From Polyangiales bacterium (GTDB lineage Bacteria > Myxococcota_A > Polyangia > Polyangiales > Ga0077539): DNA of 64,000 nucleotides. The stretch lies in NCBI GenBank assembly GCA_044229975.1, contig JBGARZ010000011.1:160001-224000 (forward strand), read 5' to 3'. The notes below the pieces were generated by a model that saw only the letters and a list, made by a program, of their open reading frames with translations, was not told the DNA's origin and did not search any database. Both the position numbers and the translations under genes were made by a program. Shown one piece after another: positions 2,338 through 20,174 of this stretch (position 1 is the stretch's first letter; each line of letters starts with the position of its first letter).

Positions 2338-3170
2338 AGCGCTTCACCCAGCAGGTTGAAGCCCACCACCGTCATCAAGATCGCCAGCCCCGGCACCAGC
2401 GTGAGCCGCGGCACCACGCGCGTCAGCGACTCCGACTGCTGGAGCATCGACCCCCACGACGCCGCGGGCGGCACCACCCCGACGCCCAGGTACGACAGCG
2501 CGCTCTCCGCGACGATCATCCCCGCCACCTGCGTCGTCGCGATGACGATCACCAGCGGAACCACGTTGGGCAGCAGGTGCTTCGTGATCACGCGGGCATG
2601 CGAGGCGCCGAGCGCGCGCGCGGCCATCACGTAGTCGAGCTCCTTGAGCTGGAGCGCCTTGCCCCGAATCTGCCGCGCCATGGAGGGCCACGAGAGAGCG
2701 CCGAGCACCACGAAGATCACCCAGAGGTCGGGCTTGTCGATGATCTTGTTGAGCGTCATCACCACGAGCAGAAATGGAAACGACAACAGCGCGTCGACGA
2801 GGCGCATGAGGATGGTGTCGGTCCATCCGCCGAAGTAGCCCGCGAGGAGGCCGACGAGGGTGCCCACCAGCACGACGAGGGCCGTCGCGGCGAAGGCCAC
2901 GGTGAGCGACACGCGCGCCCCGTAGAGCAGGCGAGAGAGCTCACAGCGACCGACGACGTCGGCCCCGAGCGGAAACTCCCACGTCGGCCCGATGGGGACG
3001 CCCTGCGTGGTGAGCGTTCGGCTCTTGAAGGGGAGGTTGGGGTCGTGCGGCGCGAGCAGCGGGGCGAACACCGCGGCCGCCAGCGCGAAGAACACCAGCA
3101 TCAGCCCGAAGCGGGCCCCGCGGTTGCGACGGAAGCGGGCGACCGCGCGCGGATCGAAGAGTGCTGCCAT
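2310..3170 (-). CDS. oppC: Oligopeptide/dipeptide ABC transporter permease (OppC/DppC)
   Basis: [26 protein letters not shown]-loop [35 protein letters not shown]. Confidence 0.92.
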
Positions 3171-3251
3171 GCGTGCGGCCGCGACGATACACGAGCCGCC
3201 CGCCCAACACTCTCTCAACACCACCGGCCTATGGTACGGAGCGTCCCCATC

Positions 3252-4796
3252 ATGGACCGCCCCCACGTCCTCATCCTCGACTTCGGCTCGCAGTACACGA
3301 TGCTCATCGCCCGGCGCATCCGGGAGCAGTCGGTCTACTGCGAGATCCACCCCTGCACGATGCCGCTCGCCGAGGTTCGCCGACGCGCCCCCGTCGCGAT
3401 CATCCTGTCGGGTGGTCCTTCGAGCGTCTTCGAGGAGGGCGCGCCCTCCGTCGACCCGGCGATCTTCGAGCTCGGGATTCCGCTCCTCGGCATCTGCTAC
3501 GGCGAGCAGCTCACGGCGCACCTCGGCGGCGGCAAGGTCGAGCCCTCGGACAGCCGCGAGTACGGCCCCGCCAAGGTCACCGTCCATCGCAACCAGGGCA
3601 TCCTCGCGCGCTTCATCGCGGGTGAAGTCCTCGACGTGTGGATGTCCCACGGTGATCGTGTCGTCGCGATGCCGCCGGGCTTCGAGGTGCTCGCGACCTC
3701 ACCGCACTCCCCCTTCGCGGCGGTGGGCCACGCGGCGCGGCGCATCTACGGCGTCCAGTTTCACCCCGAGGTGGTGCACACGGCGCGCGGAACGGACGTG
3801 CTCCGGGGCTTCCTCTTCGACGTCGCGGGCTGCCTCCCCGACTGGAGCGCGGGGGCGTTTGCCGACGAGGCCATCGCGAAGGTGAAGGCCACGGTGGGCG
3901 ACGGCCACGCGCTCTGCGCGCTGTCGGGCGGCGTCGACAGCTCGGTGGCGGCGATCCTGTGTCAGCGGGCGCTGGGCGATCGGCTGACGTGCATCTTCGT
4001 CGACAACGGCGTGCTGCGCGCGGGCGAGCGCGACCAGGTCGACCGGGTGTTTCGCGGCAACTTCGGGCTCGACCTGCGGGTCATCGACGCGCGCAAGCGC
4101 TTCCTCGACGCGCTCGACGGCGTGAGCGACCCGGAGCAGAAGCGGAAGATCATCGGGCGGGTGTTCATCGAGGTGTTCGAGGAGGAGTCCGCGAAGATCG
4201 AAGGCGTGACGCACCTCGTGCAAGGGACGCTGTATCCGGACGTGATCGAGAGCGTGTCGTTCAAGGGGCCGAGCGCGGTCATCAAGAGCCACCACAACGT
4301 CGGCGGTCTGCCCGAGCGCATGAAGCTCGCCCTGGTCGAGCCGCTGCGCGAACTCTTCAAGGACGAAGTGCGGGCCGTGGGCGACGCGCTGGGGATTCCG
4401 CGCACCATCCTGTGGCGGCAGCCGTTTCCGGGGCCGGGGCTCGCCATCCGCGTGCTGGGCGCGGTGAGCGAGACTTCATTGGACATCCTGCGCGCGGCCG
4501 ACGCCATCGTGGACCACGAGATCCGCGAGGCCGGGATGTACGAGTCGGTGTGGCAGGCGTTTGCGGTGCTGTTGCCGATTCGCACCGTCGGCGTGATGGG
4601 CGACGGCCGAACCTACGACCAGGTCTGCGCGATTCGCGCGGTGCAGAGCCAGGACGGCATGACCGCCGACTGGGCGCGGCTGCCGCACGAGCTGCTGGCG
4701 AAGATCTCGTCGCGGATCATCAACGAGGTCCGCGGCATCAACCGGGTGGTCTACGACATCTCGTCGAAGCCCCCGGCGACCATCGAGTGGGAGTGA
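3252..4796 (+). CDS. guaA: GMP synthase (glutamine-hydrolysing)
   Basis: [37 protein letters not shown]-terminal [11 protein letters not shown]. Confidence 0.98.
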
Positions 4797-11250: not shown

Positions 11251-14200
11251 ATGCGACGCAGCCCCCTCGCTTTACTCCTCTGTGTATTGGCGATGGTCGC
11301 CGCGTGCGCCGACCCGCAGCGCGCCAACCCCCCGGCCGACGTCGGCTACGTCAAGGACATGGACGCCGGGATCTATCCCGACATCCAGGCGGTGGAGGTT
11401 CCCAACCGGGACGAGCGCCCCGTCGGACCGATGACCGGGCAGCGCTGCCCCGACGACCGCTTCTGCCCCGCGGGCACCCGCTGCATCGGCGGTCGCTGTG
11501 CCGAAGACCCGTGCTCCACCACGCAGAACTCCTGTGGCGAGACCGCCACCTGCTACGCCCAGTGCGTCGCCGTGCGTGACCCCTGCGCGGGCGTCACCTG
11601 CGCGGCGCGCGAGACCTGCGTCGAGGGTCGCTGCGTCGCGGGCTGTTTCCCGACGCCCTGCACCGGCGTGGTGTGCGCCGACGGGCAGTACTGCGACCCC
11701 GGCACCGGCGACTGCGTGGCCGTGCGCCCCTGCACCGCGCCCTGTCCCGACGGCCAGGCGTGTCACCTCCAGTGTTATCCCCGCACGGCCTGTGATGGCG
11801 TCACCTGCGCCACCGGCCAGTACTGCGTCGAGGGCCGCTGCGTCGACAACCCCTGCGCCAGCGTGACCTGCGCCGAGGGCTCGGTGTGCGTCAACGGCCG
11901 CTGCCTCGACTCGTGCCAGTGCGACCCGGCGTGCAACCGCGGCCGCAACGACCGCTGCGTCTTCGGGATGTGCGTGTGCACCCCGGACTGCTCGCCCGAC
12001 GCGCCCTGCGGCGCCGAGGACGGCTGCGGCGGGCGCTGCCCCGGCTCGTGCTCCCGCGCGGGCGAGACGTGCAACCCGACGACGCGCATGTGCGAGTGCG
12101 TTCCGTCGTGCCCGGCGGGCGCGGCGTGCGGGTCGGACAACGGCTGCGGCGGGCGATGCGACGGCGGCTGCGGCACCAACGAGCGCTGCGACCCGGCCGC
12201 CCGCGCCTGCGTCTGCGACCCGCGCTGCCCCGACACCAACCCCTCCACCGTCGCGTGCGGCGAGGCCATCGCCAACGTCTGCCCCGGTCAGCCCGCGTGC
12301 GGCACCGGAACCCGCTGCGCCGACGGCCAGGCCTGCGTGGCCGGGCGCTGTCAGTGCACCGTCTCCTGCCCCGCGGCGAGCGCCGTCGACTGCGGTCAGC
12401 CCATCCGCACCGGCTGCACCGGCTCGCTCTGCGCGGGCACCGGAACCCGCTGCGCCGCCGGGACGGTCTGCACCGCGGGCGTGTGTCGTTGCGCGCCGAG
12501 CTGCCCCAGCGTGAGCCCGCTCTCGGTGACGTGCGGCGCGCCCATCGCCAACGCGTGCCCCGGTGAGCCCGCGTGCGGGTCGGGCCTCATGTGCCCGCCG
12601 GGTCAGCGCTGCAACGCCATGGGCACCTGCGAGTGCGTCTCGTCGTGCCCGGCACCCAGCACCGTCGCGTGCGGCGCGCCCGTCGTCGGCTCGTGCCCCG
12701 GCGTCCCCTGCCCCAGCGCCGGAACCATGTGCCCCGTCGGCCAGGTGTGCACCGACGGCCGCTGCGCGTGTGATCCGCTGTGCCCCGGCGCCGCGTCGGT
12801 CGCGTGCGGCATGCCCATCACCAACCGCTGCCCCGGCAACGCCTGCACCGGCACCGGGACGCAGTGCCCCGCGGGCCAGCGCTGCAACGCATCGAACGTG
12901 TGCGAGTGCGTCCCGGCGTGCCCGGCGGCGAGCTCCGTCGCGTGCGGGACGGCCATCCCCAACGTGTGCCCCGGCAACACCTGCCCCGGCACCGGAACGC
13001 AATGCCCGTCGGGCATGACCTGCTCGGGCGGCACCTGCGTGTGCGCCTCGTCGTGCCCGGCGGCCAACACCGTCACGTGCGGCGCGGCCATCACCAACCG
13101 CTGCGCGGGCCTCACGTGCACCGGCACCGGGACGCTCTGCCCATCGGGGCAGACGTGCACGGGCGGCACCTGCGTGTGCACCAACCGCTGCCCCACCACG
13201 AGCCCTTCGACGGTCGCGTGCGGGACCACCATCGCCAACGTCTGCCCGGGCGGCCCGTCGTGCGGGACGGGGACGATGTGCCCGTCGGGACAGACGTGCT
13301 CCGGGGGCGTGTGCGTGTGCAACCCGATGTGCCCGGCGGTGAGCACCGTCGCGTGCGGGCAGTCGCCGCCGAGCCGCTGCGCCGGCGTCACCTGCCCCGG
13401 CACCGGGACGCTGTGCCCATCGGGTCAGGCATGCACGGGCGGGGTGTGCACGTGCGTTCCGCGGTGCCCTGATGCGAGCACCGTCGACTGCGGATCCGAG
13501 GTGGCCAACGTCTGCCCGGGTCAGCCCGTGTGCAGCTTCGGCACGCGCTGCGACTCCGGGTCGCTCTGCATCTCCAACCGCTGCCAGTGCACCTCCATGT
13601 GCCCGACCACGAGTCCGGCGGCGGTTCCGTGCGGGGTGAGCATCCCCAACCTGTGCAGCGGCGCGCCCGCGTGCGGGACCGGGACGCAGTGCCCGGCCGG
13701 GCAGTTCTGCAACAGCTCGACGCGCGCGTGTCAGTGCGCGCCCATGTGCCCCGCCGTCGACAGCTCGCTCTACGACTGCGGCGCGGCCATCCCCAACACC
13801 TGCGCGGGCGGACCTTCGTGCGGCACGGGCACCCGCTGCCCCTCGGGCCAGGCGTGCACGGGCGGGGTATGCCAGTGCGTTCCTGCGTGCCCGACCACCG
13901 ACCCGGCCACCGTCACCTGCGGCGCAACCATCGCCAACGTCTGCTCGGGCGGCCCCTCGTGTGGTCGCGGAACGCTCTGCCCCACCGGCCAGGTGTGCAG
14001 CTCGTCGGGGACGTGCGTGTGCACCCCGCGCTGCGCCCCCGACGCCGAGTGCGGCGCGAGCGACGGCTGCGGCGGTCAGTGCGTCGGTCGCTGCGCCGAA
14101 GGGCGCGTGTGCACGCGGGACACGGTGGACACCACGCGGCTGTTCTGCGCGCCCGCGTCGTGCCCGACGGGTTGCGCCTGCGGGCAGGTGTGCAGCTTCG

Positions 14201-14310
14201 GGACGTGCGTCTCGCTCTGCGCGCCGGGCACCCGCATCTGCGGCTGCAACAACTGCTGCGCCGGGTCGCAGGTGTGCACCGGCGGCGTGTGCGTCGGACC
14301 GCCGCCGTAG
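11251..14310 (+). CDS. Giant Cys-rich repeat lipoprotein (1019 aa)
   Basis: Signal peptide with VAAC lipobox; about 13 tandem ~46-aa 8-Cys units (CxxxCP..VxCGxxIxNxCPG..CGTGTxCPxGQxCxxGxC). Confidence 0.9.
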   Translation: MRRSPLALLLCVLAMVAACADPQRANPPADVGYVKDMDAGIYPDIQAVEVPNRDERPVGPMTGQRCPDDRFCPAGTRCIGGRCAEDPCSTTQNSCGETATCYAQCVAVRDPCAGVTCAARETCVEGRCVAGCFPTPCTGVVCADGQYCDPGTGDCVAVRPCTAPCPDGQACHLQCYPRTACDGVTCATGQYCVEGRCVDNPCASVTCAEGSVCVNGRCLDSCQCDPACNRGRNDRCVFGMCVCTPDCSPDAPCGAEDGCGGRCPGSCSRAGETCNPTTRMCECVPSCPAGAACGSDNGCGGRCDGGCGTNERCDPAARACVCDPRCPDTNPSTVACGEAIANVCPGQPACGTGTRCADGQACVAGRCQCTVSCPAASAVDCGQPIRTGCTGSLCAGTGTRCAAGTVCTAGVCRCAPSCPSVSPLSVTCGAPIANACPGEPACGSGLMCPPGQRCNAMGTCECVSSCPAPSTVACGAPVVGSCPGVPCPSAGTMCPVGQVCTDGRCACDPLCPGAASVACGMPITNRCPGNACTGTGTQCPAGQRCNASNVCECVPACPAASSVACGTAIPNVCPGNTCPGTGTQCPSGMTCSGGTCVCASSCPAANTVTCGAAITNRCAGLTCTGTGTLCPSGQTCTGGTCVCTNRCPTTSPSTVACGTTIANVCPGGPSCGTGTMCPSGQTCSGGVCVCNPMCPAVSTVACGQSPPSRCAGVTCPGTGTLCPSGQACTGGVCTCVPRCPDASTVDCGSEVANVCPGQPVCSFGTRCDSGSLCISNRCQCTSMCPTTSPAAVPCGVSIPNLCSGAPACGTGTQCPAGQFCNSSTRACQCAPMCPAVDSSLYDCGAAIPNTCAGGPSCGTGTRCPSGQACTGGVCQCVPACPTTDPATVTCGATIANVCSGGPSCGRGTLCPTGQVCSSSGTCVCTPRCAPDAECGASDGCGGQCVGRCAEGRVCTRDTVDTTRLFCAPASCPTGCACGQVCSFGTCVSLCAPGTRICGCNNCCAGSQVCTGGVCVGPPP

Positions 14311-14379
14311 CGGTCGCGAGAGCCCAGCACCAGAAGCCCGGATGGGTCGGAGAGCATTCGCTCAGGTCGACCCAAGGCC

Positions 14380-14404
14380 CCTCACCGTCGCGAAGCGACG
14401 GGGC
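14380..14404 (+). repeat. REP-like short hairpin (cctcaccgtcgcgaagcgacggggc)
   Basis: Identical 25-mer at 55003-55027; variant on the minus strand at 24157-24183. Confidence 0.75.
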
Positions 14405-14479
14405 TCCCGCCCACGCCATCGATCGTCGAGGGCGCCCGTCCCGTGCTCGTGGACGCGCGAACGGGTCGCCGTGCCCGCG

Positions 14480-14834
14480 GTGAGCGGGACCCACGCCGCG
14501 GCGTCAGCGCGGCGCGCGACGGTCAGGCCCACAGTCCCCGCGGGCCCACGCCGCGGCGTCAGCGCGGCGCGCGTTGGTCGGGCCCACAGTCCCCGGGGCC
14601 TACGCCGCGGCGTCAGCGCGGCGCGCGATGGTGGGGGTGTCGGTCATTCGCGGGGGTAGCGATGAGGTCGTTCGTGGACGCGCGCGTGAGGGTCGCCGAC
14701 ACGTGTTCGTTGGACACGCGAGAAGGATCGCCGGCTCCGCGTTCGCGAACGCCCCGCACGCGGGGCTGCTCACGCTGAACCCGGGACCTGGTACTGACCG
14801 CCTCGCCTGCGCGAGGCTATCTGCACGAGCGTCG
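14480..14834 (+). repeat. Left arm of long inverted repeat (tandem 54-55 bp hairpin units plus ~107-bp core)
   Basis: Units start at 14490, 14545 and 14599; core 14728-14834 matches the reverse complement of 15819-15926 with about 5 substitutions and 1 indel. Confidence 0.88.
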
Positions 14835-14989
14835 GTCGCTGGAGCGACCGCCGAGAAGGTGTAGTGGGCCACTCGAAGACCGTGCCGTGCTCGCGTCAGC
14901 ACCCGGTGGCCACGAGGTGAAGTCGATGCGGGTGACGCGTACGCCTCAACGGTGCACGGCAGCGATCGCAGGGAAGACTCGGCCTGCGG

Positions 14990-15739
14990 CTACTTGTCGA
15001 GCGGGGCGCCCATCGCGGTCAGGATGCCGTCGCGCGTGGTCTCGCCGAGGATGGAGTCGATGAGGGTCTCCTCCTCGGTGAAGTCCGTTCGCGGCGTCTC
15101 GAACATCCCAATCTTGGTGCCGCTCTCCTTCACAATGACCACGAAGCTCTCCTCGCGATCCAATGTGTGGAAGACCCGGGTGCTGAGCTCCGCGGACACG
15201 GCCGTGGGGAACGACCCCAGCGTCCTGTTCTCGAGCCAGCCGAGTACGTGCGCGCCCTTCGGCTCCAAGCGCAGCGTCTGCCTCTCGCGTTTCACCCCTT
15301 CCCCGATCGCGTCCTCTACTGCCTCGATCGTCGCGTTCTCGACGAACATGAAGCTTCGGGTCCCCGGAGGTTTTGGGGGGAACATCCCGCCGAGCTCCAA
15401 CTCGATGACGAACAGCTCAGGGTCAGGGGCTTTGTCGTACTGCAGGTCCTTCGCGACCTTGCCGCGCCGGCACGTCGTGACCCGTTCGTCGTTCTCTCGG
15501 AAGGAGACCACGTACACCGGCCCCTCGCAGTTGGCGGACAGCTCCCGCGCGACCTCGATCTCCCGCTCGTCGTGCGGATCGCCCGGTTCGTAGTCGACGA
15601 GCGCGAGGTAGGTCCCCTCACCGCGAACCAGCTTGCAGCCCTTGAAGAGCCCGCTCTTCCGGCGGGTCAGGGCCTGGAGCACCTTCGCGGGTACGGCAGC
15701 GATCAACGCGCTCGTGGGGTCAGTCGTCGGGGTCGGCAT
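14990..15739 (-). CDS. Orphan hypothetical protein (possibly immunity-like), cargo between inverted repeats
   Basis: 249 aa, acidic, no signal peptide, apparent two-fold internal similarity (ARELSANCEGPVYVV / SAELSTRVFH); visibly less GC-rich than flanks. Confidence 0.75.
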   Translation of the reverse strand: MPTPTTDPTSALIAAVPAKVLQALTRRKSGLFKGCKLVRGEGTYLALVDYEPGDPHDEREIEVARELSANCEGPVYVVSFRENDERVTTCRRGKVAKDLQYDKAPDPELFVIELELGGMFPPKPPGTRSFMFVENATIEAVEDAIGEGVKRERQTLRLEPKGAHVLGWLENRTLGSFPTAVSAELSTRVFHTLDREESFVVIVKESGTKIGMFETPRTDFTEEETLIDSILGETTRDGILTAMGAPLDK

Positions 15740-15818
15740 CGCGCCGAACCATAGCCTTCGATGGCTCGCTCCCTCCACTTGCCGGACACCTACGCCCGCT
15801 CGTCGAGTGCGGAGCGCT

Positions 15819-16061
15819 CGACGCTCGTGCCGATAGCCTCGCGCAGGCGAGGCGGTCAGTTCCATGTCCCGGGTTCAGCGTGAGCAGCCCCGCGCCGCGG
15901 GGCGTCCGCGAACGCGGAGCCGGCGACCTCATCGCGCCCCCCGCGACACGACGACCGACATCGCGACGATCGCGCCGCGCTGACGCTGCGGCGTGGGCCC
16001 CGGGGACTGCGGGCCTGACCATTGCGCGCCGCGCTGACGCCGCGGCGTGGGCCCCACTCAC
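15819..16061 (-). repeat. Right arm of long inverted repeat
   Basis: Reverse complement of the left arm; about 2 tandem units, lacking the ~58-bp segment at 14671-14727. Confidence 0.88.
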
Positions 16062-16223
16062 TGCGTGCCGACACCCCCGCGCCAACACCCCATCCGTCAC
16101 GCCTCCACTGCCCCGAAGCACCCCGTCCCTCTCCCCATAAGTCCCCTACTTTCGCAGTCCCTGCGCGACGTCAGCCCCGCTTCGTTGGCAACCCGTCACG
16201 CTCCGTCTAGCTTCCGCGCCGCC

Positions 16224-19200
16224 ATGAACCGCGCCGCCTCCTTCTTCCTTCTCCTCGCCGCCCTCGCCGCAGCCTGCGGGCCCGCCCCGGTCAACAACAC
16301 CATCACCCCGACCGGCGACGGCGCCGTGACCTTCGACGCCCCCACCGACGACACCGCGGCCCCCGCCGACGGCACCGTCACGCCCGACGGCAACACCACC
16401 CGCGTGAGCTGTACCGACGACACGCCCTGCACCCCGTTGGGCCAGCGTTGCTATCGCCCGCTCGGGTACTGCGTGCAGTGCACCGCCGACGTCGAGTGCT
16501 CCGGCGGCGCGCAGGTGTGCACCCAGGGCCGCTGCGTCGATCGGGTGAGCTGTTCGACCTCGCGGCAGTGCCCCGGCCAGGTGTGCGACCTCGCCCGCAA
16601 CGCCTGCGCCGATTGCGTCGTCGACCCCGACTGCACCGGCGGCGCCGTGTGCCGACTCAACAACTGCGTCGCCCCGCCGACGGCGTGTACCTCCGACCGG
16701 ATGTGCGCCGCGCTCGATCAGGTCTGCAACGTCGCGCAGGGCCTCTGCGTCGACTGCAACGGCGACCCCGACTGCTCCAACGGGTACTGCACCCCGGCCA
16801 ACACCTGCCTGCCCCGCATGTGCACCCCGAGCGCCACCGAGTGCCTCGGCGTCGACCGCGTCCGCACCTGCGACGCCCGCGGAACCCGCTGGAGCGAGTC
16901 CGCCTGCACCGGCGCTACCGTCTGCTCCGAGGGCCGCTGCGTCGCCCGCGTGTGCGCGCCCGACGCCCGCTCCTGCGCCGACTCCGACAACCGCCGCGTC
17001 TGCAACGCCGACGGCCTCGGGTACACCGCCACTGCCTGCGCCGCGGGTGAGTCCTGCGACCGCGGCGACTGCCTCCCGCGCTCGTGCACCCCCGGCGCCT
17101 CCGTCTGCTCCGACGGAACCACCCGCCGCGTCTGCAACGCCGACGGCCTCGGCTTCGCCGTCTCGCCCTGCCCGAGCGGTCAGGGCTGCGTCACCGGGGC
17201 GTGTGTTCCGTTCGTGTGCACCCCCGGCGCGTCGACCTGCTCGGACGGCACCACGCGACGGCTCTGCGCCGCCGATGGGCAGAGCTTCACCAGCGCCCCC
17301 TGCGCGGCCATGCAGTCGTGCACCGGCGGCGTATGCGTCGCCTGGCGCTGCACACCGGGCGCCTCGATGTGCGTGAGCGGCGGCCGTAGCACCTGCAACG
17401 CCGACGGCCTCGCCTCGACCACCACGCCCTGCACGTCGACCGAGACCTGCCTCGTCGACCGCTGCGTCGCGCGCACCTGCTCGCCCTCCACCAACTTCTG
17501 CGACGCCATGGGCAACCGCCAGCTCTGCTCGGCCGACGGAACCTCCTCCACCCCGGCCCCCTGCACCGCGAGCCAGACGTGCTCGGCGGGCATGTGCGCG
17601 CTCCGCGGCGAGTCGTGCCCCGGCATCGACCTCGTGCCCGACGGACCCACGGCGACGGTGATCCCGACGGGCTTCTCGACCACCGCCGACGTGGGCACCG
17701 CCTGCGGTTCGAGCTCGTCGCGCACCGGGTGGACCGACGTGGTCTTCCGCCTCCCGCTCACCACCGCGCGCGACGTCACGCTCGTCGTCAACACGGGGCT
17801 CTCCAACACCCGCGTGCAGCTCCAGTCCACCTGCGCGACGGGACAGACCGCCATCGGCGCCTGCCTCTCCGGCGGTAACCCCACGCGCCGCTACCGCAAC
17901 CTCGCCGCCGGAACCTACTTCGTCGTCGTCGAGATCTACGGCACCACCGGCCCCATCCAGATCGGCGTCACCACCGCCCCGCCCAACACCCGCCTGCCGG
18001 GCGACGCGTGCCCCGGCGTGGACGTCCCCGTCGACGCCGCTGCGACCACCATCAGCACGGCGATGTTCGACACCGTCTCCGACGTCGGAACCTCCTGCGG
18101 CTCCGACGCGAGCGGCACCTCGCACGACGGCTACACCGACTGGATCGCCCACTTCACCCTCGCCACCACCCGCGACGTGAACATCACCGCCGCGCCCTCC
18201 AACGGCTACACCAGCCGCTTCGAGCTGCGCTCCGGCTGCGGCGCCGCGGGCGCCCCCATCGGCGGCTGCTACGCCCTCACCTCCCTCAACCGCCGCTACC
18301 GCGCGCTGCCTCCCGGCGACTACTACCTCGTCGGCGAGGTGGGCGGTGGCGCCGCGCCCGGCAACGTTCCGGTCACCATCACCACCAGCTCGCCCGACAT
18401 GCGCGCGACCGGCGACTCCTGCGCGTCGGCGGTGCCCGTCACCCCCGATGGCGCGGTTGCAAGCATCCCCCTCGCCACCTTCGACAACGTCTCCGACGTC
18501 GGGACCCCCTGCGGCTCCACCCGCCCCCGCGTCGACGGCTGGTACGACGTGATGTGGCGCTTCTCGCTCACGGCCCCGCGCGACGTGCGCTTCAACTTCG
18601 TCAACCTCCCGAGCACCGCGCGCTGGCAGGTCTACCAGGGCTGCGGCGCCTCCCCGATGGGCACCTGCAGCAGCACCTCCGGGAGCGCCGCCGCGGGCTG
18701 GGTGCGCGGCCTCGCGGCGGGTGACTACTACGTCGTCGTCGAGTCGCAGTACACGTTCTCCTTCCCCACCTCGCTCCAGCTCACGACGGTGGCGCCCGGC
18801 ACCCGTCTGCGCGGCGACGCCTGCTCGACCGCCGCCGAGGTCACCATGGACGGCAGCACACCCGTCGTCGGCGTCACGGGCTTCGACCTCGGCGCCGACG
18901 TCGGAACCGCCTGCTCCACTACCGGCTCGCACGCCGCGTTCAGCGATGCTGTCTGGCACTTCCGCCTCACCGCTCCGCGCGACGTGACCCTCGCCTTCTC
19001 GGGCGCGCCGTCGAGCTTCTCGTGGCAGCTCCAGCGCACCTGCGACACCGCGGGCGGCGTCGTCGCCGGGTGCCTGCTGAGCTCGTACTCGGGCACACGC
19101 CGCTACCGCGACCTCCCCGCGGGCGACTACTACGTCGTCGCCGAGTGGTCGGGATCGGTCACCAACTCGTTCTCCATCACGGCCACCAGCACGACGCCCA

Positions 19201-20174
19201 CGACCCGCGTGGCGGGCGACGTCTGCGCCACGGCGATCACGGTCACCCCCGACGGGTCGGCCGCCTCGGTCGCCGTCGATGGCCTCAGCCTCGGCGGGGA
19301 GTACAGCACCCGCTGCGGGTCGGGCCCTTCGGCGCCGACTTCGTATCGCGATGCGGTGTTCAGCTACACGCTCACGGCGACGCGCGATGTCACGGTTTCG
19401 GTCAACTACGCGAGCACGGCGTCCTTCGAGGTGTGGAGCGCCTGCGGCGACAGCACGTCGGCCCTGCTGAGCTGCGCGCTCACCAGCGGCGGCGTCGGCC
19501 GCATCACCATCCCCCGCCAGGCCGCGGGGACGTACTACATCGTCGCGCAGACCACGGCTTCGGCGGGGCCGCTCGCCGCCTCGGTGAGCACCACGGCCCC
19601 CGGCACCACGAGCGGCTACACCCTCTCCACGTCACCGTCGGGCGTCACCTACGTCAACGTGTGCGGAACCACCGGCGCCAGCTCGGTGCTCCCCAACACG
19701 GACGACGACGCCGTCACCGCGCGACTGCCCTTCGACTTCCGCTTCTGGGGAACGCTCATCCCCACCAACAGCAACGTCGGCATCTCCAGCAACGGGTTCA
19801 TCACCATGGACGGTGTCGCCTACGCGGAACTCTCCGGGGCGATCCCCGACGTCACCGCCCCCAACAGCGTCATCGCCGCCAACTGGATCGACCTCGTCAC
19901 CGGCACCACCGGCGTCTGCTACGCCACGCAGGGCACCGCGCCCAACCGCCGCTGGGTCGTGCAGTGGGCCAACGCTCGCCGCTACTCGGGCTCCGGCCCC
20001 ATCAACATGGAGATCATCCTCAACGAGTCGACCAACACCATCGACCTCGTCTACGACATCGCCATGACCAGCGGCGGCGCGGTCGGTGTCGAGAACGCCA
20101 CCGGGGCCGCCGGCGTCGCGTATCCCATCACCTCCAGCCTCGTCGGCGCGCGGCTGCGCTTCACCCCCAACTGA
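16224..20174 (+). CDS. Large surface lipoprotein: Cys-rich repeats, 5 PPC-like beta modules and a C-terminal NIDO-like domain
   Basis: LAAAC lipobox; RRVCNADG repeats; five G(D/E)xC...LxAGxYxVVxE modules; DDD...LPFDFRFWG...SSNGFIT...IAANWIDL. Confidence 0.88.

Follow-up and report, generated by a model that had tools for sequence, protein, structure and literature searches.

The question raised by this locus is how a single gene with phage-related neighbours elsewhere came to lie between two long inverted repeats in a bacterial chromosome. The window, by which we mean the whole stretch of 64,000 nucleotides analyzed here (G000:C2:160001-224000), belongs to a genome of about 10 Mb with a GC content of 71% (71.3% in the composition test) and a completeness of 93%. 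Reading of the open reading frames placed a minus-strand ORF of 249 amino acids between two plus-strand cysteine-rich genes, one at 11251-14310 and the other from about 16224 onward. The products of these flanking genes (11251-14310 and 16224-20174) are very large repeat proteins rich in cysteine, for which Pfam gave no hits, and the two genes lie 27 letters apart in X1, a related strain.

Anatomy of the arms and the enclosed gene

The features of the DNA between the two flanking genes are listed below in window coordinates.

14311..16184, no strand: whole intergenic stretch, with 27 letters in its place in a related strain (empty site in X1)
14341..14404, plus: hairpin repeat family outside the paired arms, within the accreted stretch (BLAST; folding z -2.2)
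14487..14632, plus: three REP-like units of 54-55 bp, of a family that also flanks the Y1 gene G000:C26:70986-71477
14633..14670, plus: linker from the REP units to the inner arm, with an inverted counterpart at about 15924-15970
14671..14727, plus: about 60 bp unique to the left arm (arm comparison)
14726..14880, plus: inner arm, A-type half of a TIR/REPIN-like hairpin dimer of about 305 bp, and the start of its spacer
14905..14964, minus: decayed phage remnant, comprising intergenic DNA and the first codons (VRVTRIDF) of a DUF2213 gene
14990..15739, minus: cargo ORF P0001 of 249 aa, without a Pfam family and with two alpha/beta domains predicted
15779..15928, minus: inner arm, B-type half of the same dimer, and the end of its spacer
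15971..16069, minus: two REP-like units of 54 bp, inverted relative to the left array

The inward-facing inverted arms around one gene that the initial annotation had described are borne out by an outer block of 84 nt (14542-14625 vs 15971-16054, 93% identity) and an inner block of 82 nt (14759-14840 vs 15813-15894, 94%), as are its tandem units of 54-55 bp, of which there are three in the left arm and two in the right, and its core of about 107 bp with about six differences, measured here as 107/108 nt with exactly 6 (14728-14834 vs 15819-15926). Both arms extend further inward, to about 14880 on the left and 15779 on the right, and their inner ends are unlike each other, with an A-type hairpin on one side and a B-type hairpin on the other. 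About 60 bp of the left arm are without a counterpart in the right arm. Two repeat families are nested in each arm, the outer being the REP-like family of 54 bp and the inner a dimer half of about 140 bp. The same annotation saw no obvious target duplication, and indeed only matches of 4-6 nt occur near four candidate end pairs, none of them convincing. No match to a sigma-70 promoter or an intrinsic terminator was found at the locus. The hairpin repeat at 14341-14404 gives 22 BLAST hits in the genome, with five short inward dimers, and repeats of the same family mark the variable DNA that G002, G003, and G004 have at this site.

The enclosed DNA of about 0.9 kb, located in the dimer spacer, consists of the 249-aa gene and a decayed DUF2213 start. 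The composition of the gene, which had been called atypical, is only mildly so, with a GC content of 65.7% vs 71.3% for the genome and a GC3 of 0.90; 3.6% of the 750-bp tiles of the genome are at or below 65.2% GC. A close search returned six relatives of the cargo protein at 43-68% identity and a profile search 81 cluster representatives of its family, and Pfam gave nothing useful for the cargo or for 63 aligned family members. The fold model (pLDDT 85, pTM 0.55) predicts two alpha/beta domains. The structural check proposed in the annotation was run and is uninformative, with no Foldseek matches at E<=0.001, and the best VIA match, a DUF1281 protein (Z 7.5, rmsd 4.1, 94 residues aligned), is within background, so that from the model we neither claim nor exclude a fold. 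Matches were found in 4 of 120 genomes of the order scanned; among 400 other genomes of the phylum, with six candidates scored per genome, there was no match outside G000, and a scan of viral and metagenome contigs for cargo homologues confirmed no locus. G053 has a distant member of the family, an isolated gene with neither inverted repeats nor an upstream toxin-like gene. Elsewhere in the genome, the first 120 residues encoded by a 329-aa gene at C33:213054-214043 (L081) are distantly related to the first domain of the cargo (E 1e-17).

The arm families and their Y1 transposases

The inner arm of about 140 bp is the A or the B half of a hairpin dimer of about 305 bp, which occurs in the genome as 12 empty dimers of 301-339 bp, with more in relatives. 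The initial annotation had found no transposase or recombinase; there is none at the locus itself, but one copy of the dimer elsewhere in the genome (C23:67402-68128), with arms 69% like those of the window, encloses a gene for a Y1 protein of the IS200/RAYT-like type (PF01797, E 5.9e-24), the sequence of which contains the HVH and YxxxQxxHH (YIRDQPRHH) motifs. Related Y1 genes (54-84% identity) are positioned between such arms in five genomes (G000, G001, G003, G004, and G008), and a Y1 gene of this type occurs as one copy per genome where seen. All 12 empty dimers of the genome are A-B pairs, as is the window element, and the Y1-bearing copy is B-B. The spacer ends of the window element are also on the correct sides, the left arm running into the spacer start and the right arm being preceded by the spacer end. 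The two window arms are 94% alike, and the halves of empty dimers 82-95% alike. Comparison of the window arms with every other arm in the genome resulted in identities of only 66-74%, and alignment to empty dimers of G004 and G008 in 82-84% and 79-81%, respectively. Being closer to an empty dimer of another species, the filled piece is probably old or derived from another lineage. No Y1 gene flanked by the window's own arm subtype was found in the genome. In an X2 contig, 14856 is joined to 15787 via 35 letters, which represents an empty dimer of the window arm type with modest support (a side of 28 letters, depth 3.4).

The arms had been described as hairpin-rich, and this stood in one respect and not in another. 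A single arm folds no better than shuffled sequence (z -0.48 and -0.59). Across 22 copies of the family, however, five helices covary, with 92.8% of cells paired and 0/500 shuffles as high, a count that overstates significance because the sequences are related; 15/35 pairs are changed on both sides, and slid controls are 33-43% paired, a contrast inflated by the structure having been drawn from the same sequences. Judged by this covariation, the secondary structure of the arms is conserved via compensatory changes.

Four distinct Y1 genes are present in the genome (C23:54495, C23:67598, C26:70986, and C34:47422). Inverted arms of a separate kind flank each of them, and each is matched by a dispersed family of dimers or arrays; the two families other than those of the window arms form 31 and 51 short inward pairs. 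The outer arm unit of 54-55 bp represents another of these families, with 162 units in 92 runs, and inward arrays of 10 and 15 units flank the Y1 gene at C26:70986-71477. A GTAG/GTGG motif is found in most 54-bp units, on one strand, in a family whose arrays flank a Y1 gene, which makes these units candidates for GTAG-family REPs. The window dimer lies between inward REP arrays, as does the empty dimer at C19:491352-492190. The latter (L079) is an empty twin of the window nest, an arm dimer within REP arrays, and its spacer is unusual and longer. At several dimers of the genome the outer flanks continue as variable inverted repeats 30-200 bp long, which gives the impression of a dimer placed within the tip of another hairpin.

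The repeats and their enzymes resemble several described systems. In TIRtrons/TIRYTs a Y1 gene is flanked by long inverted repeats and the same repeats are dispersed as dimers (Di Nocera 2013, PMC3733652), and the genome shares with them long inverted repeats other than GTAG REPs, dispersed dimers, and several repeat-specific Y1 loci, four in this case. Unlike TIRtrons, the family described here has arms of about 140 bp with nested covarying helices, a fixed A/B asymmetry, and a foreign gene in one dimer; the word "cargo" occurs 0 times in the main text of that paper. Inverted doublets forming long hairpins, a single-copy partner transposase, and tandem arrays are features shared with REPINs/BIMEs and their RAYT (TnpA-REP) (PMC3337134, PMC3116915, PMC5581495, PMC8266576), and as in REPIN/RAYT systems the outer 54-bp repeats surround a Y1 gene of their own. 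In published REPINs the REPs are 18-112 bp apart with non-coding spacers (SBW25 table), whereas the present unit measures about 305 bp, and in one copy the spacer contains 0.9 kb of phage-related DNA. The arm-flanked Y1 protein matches TnpA-Y1 subclass 1.2 (Quentin 2018, PMC6006769) in its HVH and YxxxQxxHH motifs and its single copy, an assignment made by motif; members of that subclass are described as generally without IS200-type end structures, in contrast to the Y1 genes here, which are tied to long structured arms in five genomes. By its arms, then, the window element is a non-autonomous, cargo-filled TIR/REPIN dimer of a Y1-associated repeat family. It works like a REPIN and yet is not classed as a canonical REPIN (RAYT groups 2/3), which has two short REPs and a short non-coding spacer, the arms here being about 140 bp and the spacer 0.9 kb and coding.

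Phage context and predicted immunity role of the cargo

The neighborhoods of the close cargo relatives were examined at three distinct loci in three genomes (L005, L006, and L010; L007 and L009 are identical in DNA to L005 and L006, respectively, and each pair was counted once). At all three loci the cargo homologue (43-63% identity) is located between MuF-derived sequence and DUF2213 in a prophage head module, and the arms are absent around it. In L005 and L006 it directly follows a MuF protein (PF04233) with a long C-terminal extension, its start codon overlaps the upstream stop, and DUF2213 comes next; in L005 a portal gene precedes the MuF gene. L010 retains just the final 130 residues of the MuF extension. 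The check proposed in the annotation, that homologues of the cargo might lie downstream of polymorphic toxins, gave a result that fits it, in that all three directly follow MuF-derived sequence, the extension of which is a predicted toxin. Positions 14905-14964 of the window match the intergenic DNA together with the initial DUF2213 codons of the three loci, with 0/300 shuffles as high for each of them. The DUF2213 remnant breaks off in a frameshift after its first eight residues and the cargo ORF is intact, indicating that the fragment was cut from a phage and that the neighboring gene has since decayed.

Position is also what points to a function. The slot after a MuF gene with a C-terminal extension is that of the immunity genes of MuF toxins, and most ORFs after MuF toxins are shorter than 150 aa (PMC5576092). 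As in the MuF toxin-immunity modules of temperate phages (Jamet 2017, PMC5576092), L005 and L006 combine a portal gene, an extended MuF gene, and a directly downstream ORF. They differ from these modules in an extension that has no recognized toxin domain and a downstream ORF of about 250 aa, and the window ORF differs further in being toxin-less and inside a repeat element. With 249 aa and two predicted domains the cargo exceeds the size of most MuF immunity ORFs, a size that is typical rather than strict. The cargo is likely to be the immunity protein of a MuF-type toxin, as its position suggests; the description of the cargo as an orphan immunity-type protein fits that position, which is what the immunity assignment is derived from. 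The MuF extension would be the toxin, and the cargo would neutralize it. In L006 the MuF protein (2379-4373) is 664 aa long and its C-terminal extension is a candidate new toxin domain. Pfam gave no hits on the MuF extension, and a search for its homologues among longer proteins returned none but itself. The model of the toxin region (pLDDT 49) is too poor to search, its best match having Z 5.2, rmsd 4.0, and 87 residues aligned. The extension contains a D...EVK pattern, which may point to a nuclease of the restriction-endonuclease type. Searches of the window's genome, at its completeness of 93%, turned up neither a MuF gene nor a homologue of the extension.

A prophage relic might already have been at the site, with two independent repeats straddling it by chance. 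A comparable decayed prophage piece, made up of a toxin-region fragment, the homologue, and the DUF2213 start, does occur in G018, and with about 110 repeat loci detected by BLAST of the window flanks the genome is rich in repeats. Both arms, however, are of a subtype seen nowhere else in the genome, with A and B in the right order and the spacer ends attached, which makes such straddling unlikely; the outer linker is also common to both arms, and neither the surroundings nor the rest of the genome yielded another prophage head gene. We regard this origin as highly improbable.

Origin of the filled element

An X1 contig of 1992 nt (depth 49.7), about 89% identical to the window, passes from 14310 to 16185 with 27 letters in between, so that the related strain is without the entire 1.87-kb stretch, as the search for empty sites in relatives had been intended to reveal. 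The 27 letters resemble window 16158-16184 by eye, which places the added DNA at about 14311-16157, including DNA outside the arms at 14311-14480 and 16070-16157. An X1 contig also spans the arm-cargo junction (14802-15109, 17 differences), indicating that this junction is not peculiar to the G000 assembly. G002 carries 4.5 kb of different genes between the same two flanking genes, and in G001, G003, G004, and G008 other neighbors follow the left flanking gene. With different genes at the site in five other species, the site is, on gene content, a general insertion hotspot. The arm family, the dimers, and the empty site together uphold the view of a non-autonomous, REP/MITE-bounded structure with acquired cargo.

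We put at about one in two the probability that a phage fragment was joined at the hairpin tip of a Y1-family dimer by the Y1 enzyme and kept for its predicted immunity product. The partner Y1 would nick and strand-transfer at the hairpin tip, about 0.9 kb of prophage-related DNA would be joined into the spacer of the REP-nested dimer, and the fragment would be retained for a product that confers immunity to a toxin. Such joining is proposed on the basis of the chemistry of TnpA-REP, since the purified Escherichia coli enzyme cleaves and rejoins REP DNA (PMC8266576). The arm family, the A-B pairing, the arm-flanked Y1 genes in five genomes, the phage context, the DUF2213 remnant, and the empty site are observed, and to these the proposal adds that Y1 would have acted on these arms and would have caused the capture. 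Against it, no junction signature ties the insertion to Y1.

Passive insertion explains the anatomy nearly as well. The dimer would then be a landing pad, at which illegitimate recombination or break repair at a long palindrome placed a one-off, immobile insertion with no part played by Y1. REPs are known targets of insertion sequences (PMC3184786), and an IS66-like element with a short target duplication sits in a dimer spacer of the C34 Y1 family (C23:501287-503076, L100). This pair of arms is the only long pair of that family without a transposase of its own, an identical IS66-like copy is found at C37, and the family name comes from reading the protein rather than from a profile; from its sequence, this element is a passive insertion. 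Foreign cargo occupies only 1 of the 14 paired-arm elements of the genome, namely the window element, the other filled copy being that with Y1, and short look-alike stretches at the left junction of the window element fit both spacer and phage DNA. What speaks against a purely passive origin is the outer family. Among its runs that are 250-3500 bp from a neighbor, 7/9 face inward (p=0.001 against 1 in 4), and 4/6 do so (p=0.04) when the window, the Y1 locus, and the nested dimer are removed, so that these repeats bracket single genes beyond chance. At C32:823429-824000 (L076:1930-2501) a DUF1801 gene lies between two inward-facing REP units of 54 bp, one on each side, and the REPs and the gene are absent together in 5/8 relatives, in which the flanks are 24-78 bp apart; of the other three, one has different DNA at the site and two are broken there. 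We consider passive insertion possible, at somewhat better than half the weight that we give to capture by Y1.

Other bracketed genes bear on how general such units are. A second bracketed cargo (C19:474322) has no match in eight relatives, whose sites hold other genes, and a third is a member of a gene family with several copies at unrelated sites. A lipoprotein-like family (C19:221259, C19:531626, C4:315881, and C2:215298) has eight BLAST hits in the genome and many in relatives; a repeat lies 120-310 bp upstream in 4/8 copies, and two are bracketed by inward REPs. As to the proposed tabulation of genes between paired arm copies, the window element is the only filled dimer of the inner-arm family in the genome other than the Y1 copy. 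In the relatives, a hand count over 150 of the 176 rows gave at least 29 short inner-arm pairs and at least 3 long ones, all 3 with Y1, many further arms ending at contig breaks where they cannot be judged.

An active cassette, in which Y1 acting in trans would excise and reinsert arm-gene-arm units as a gene-capture shuttle, is a doubtful reading of these data. The window has the layout of the Y1-bearing element with cargo replacing the transposase, the arm structure is kept by compensatory changes, the REP-DUF1801-REP unit is missing from empty sites in the five relatives named above, and the upstream repeat in 4/8 copies of the lipoprotein-like family points the same way. Each filled unit, however, is single-copy, the long pairs of relatives counted above hold Y1 and no other cargo, and the limits of the empty site do not coincide with those of the arms. 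The annotation had expected the element to capture, invert, or swap its cargo. BLAST found no second copy of the filled unit in the genome, so its movement gained no support, and swapping of cargo between inner arms fared no better, no other filled dimer being found, in the genome or among the pairs counted in relatives, except those with Y1. The filled element is probably static now. Inversion would make the locus a phase-variation switch, in which the gene is flipped by recombination between its arms, and inverted arms that are 94% identical over more than 100 bp could recombine. The A-B asymmetry is nevertheless intact, no recombinase was recognized nearby by ORF reading, and among the joints listed none is an inversion between the inner arms, a weak test that draws on low-depth contigs of other strains. 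An opposite-strand joint in X1 (14404/16012) was considered as an inversion and rejected, as it links two repeat families. Of all the explanations weighed here we find the switch the hardest to credit.

The element also resembles the integron mobilization unit and other MITE-bracketed elements (PMC3184786), in which non-autonomous repeats bracket a passenger and a transposase would act in trans. Those of the integron mobilization unit type have two whole MITEs and 5-bp target duplications, whereas in the present element a passenger interrupts a single dimer and an HUH Y1 would be the likely enzyme; no convincing target duplication is seen. Among open-literature papers screened by title and the start of the abstract, a set with few subscription papers, none describes gene capture into a REPIN or TIR spacer. 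A gene class "arwAF" between REP doublets was dropped, with 0 occurrences in the text searched. The repeats and the enzyme are of a known kind, and the new part would be the phage gene that fills the spacer of such a dimer, for which this limited literature test is weak evidence of novelty.

At this locus phage-related DNA sits at a hairpin tip, and its donor context, an empty dimer, an empty site, and a candidate enzyme have all been identified, which makes it a concrete case; hairpin repeats may trap foreign genes in this way. It also points to a family of about 80 candidate immunity proteins without a name, together with the unassigned MuF extension. If the insertion was passive, the locus would still illustrate clearly how accessory genes can enter at repeats, but would be of modest interest. 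A bolder and rather unlikely proposal is that the domesticated Y1 and its hairpin dimers form a gene-acquisition system, in which phage DNA is joined at the tip, useful genes, for instance those for immunity to phage-borne toxins, are kept by selection, and the unit may be moved again. If that were true, it would supply the host benefit that the persistence of single-copy RAYT-like genes is thought to need.
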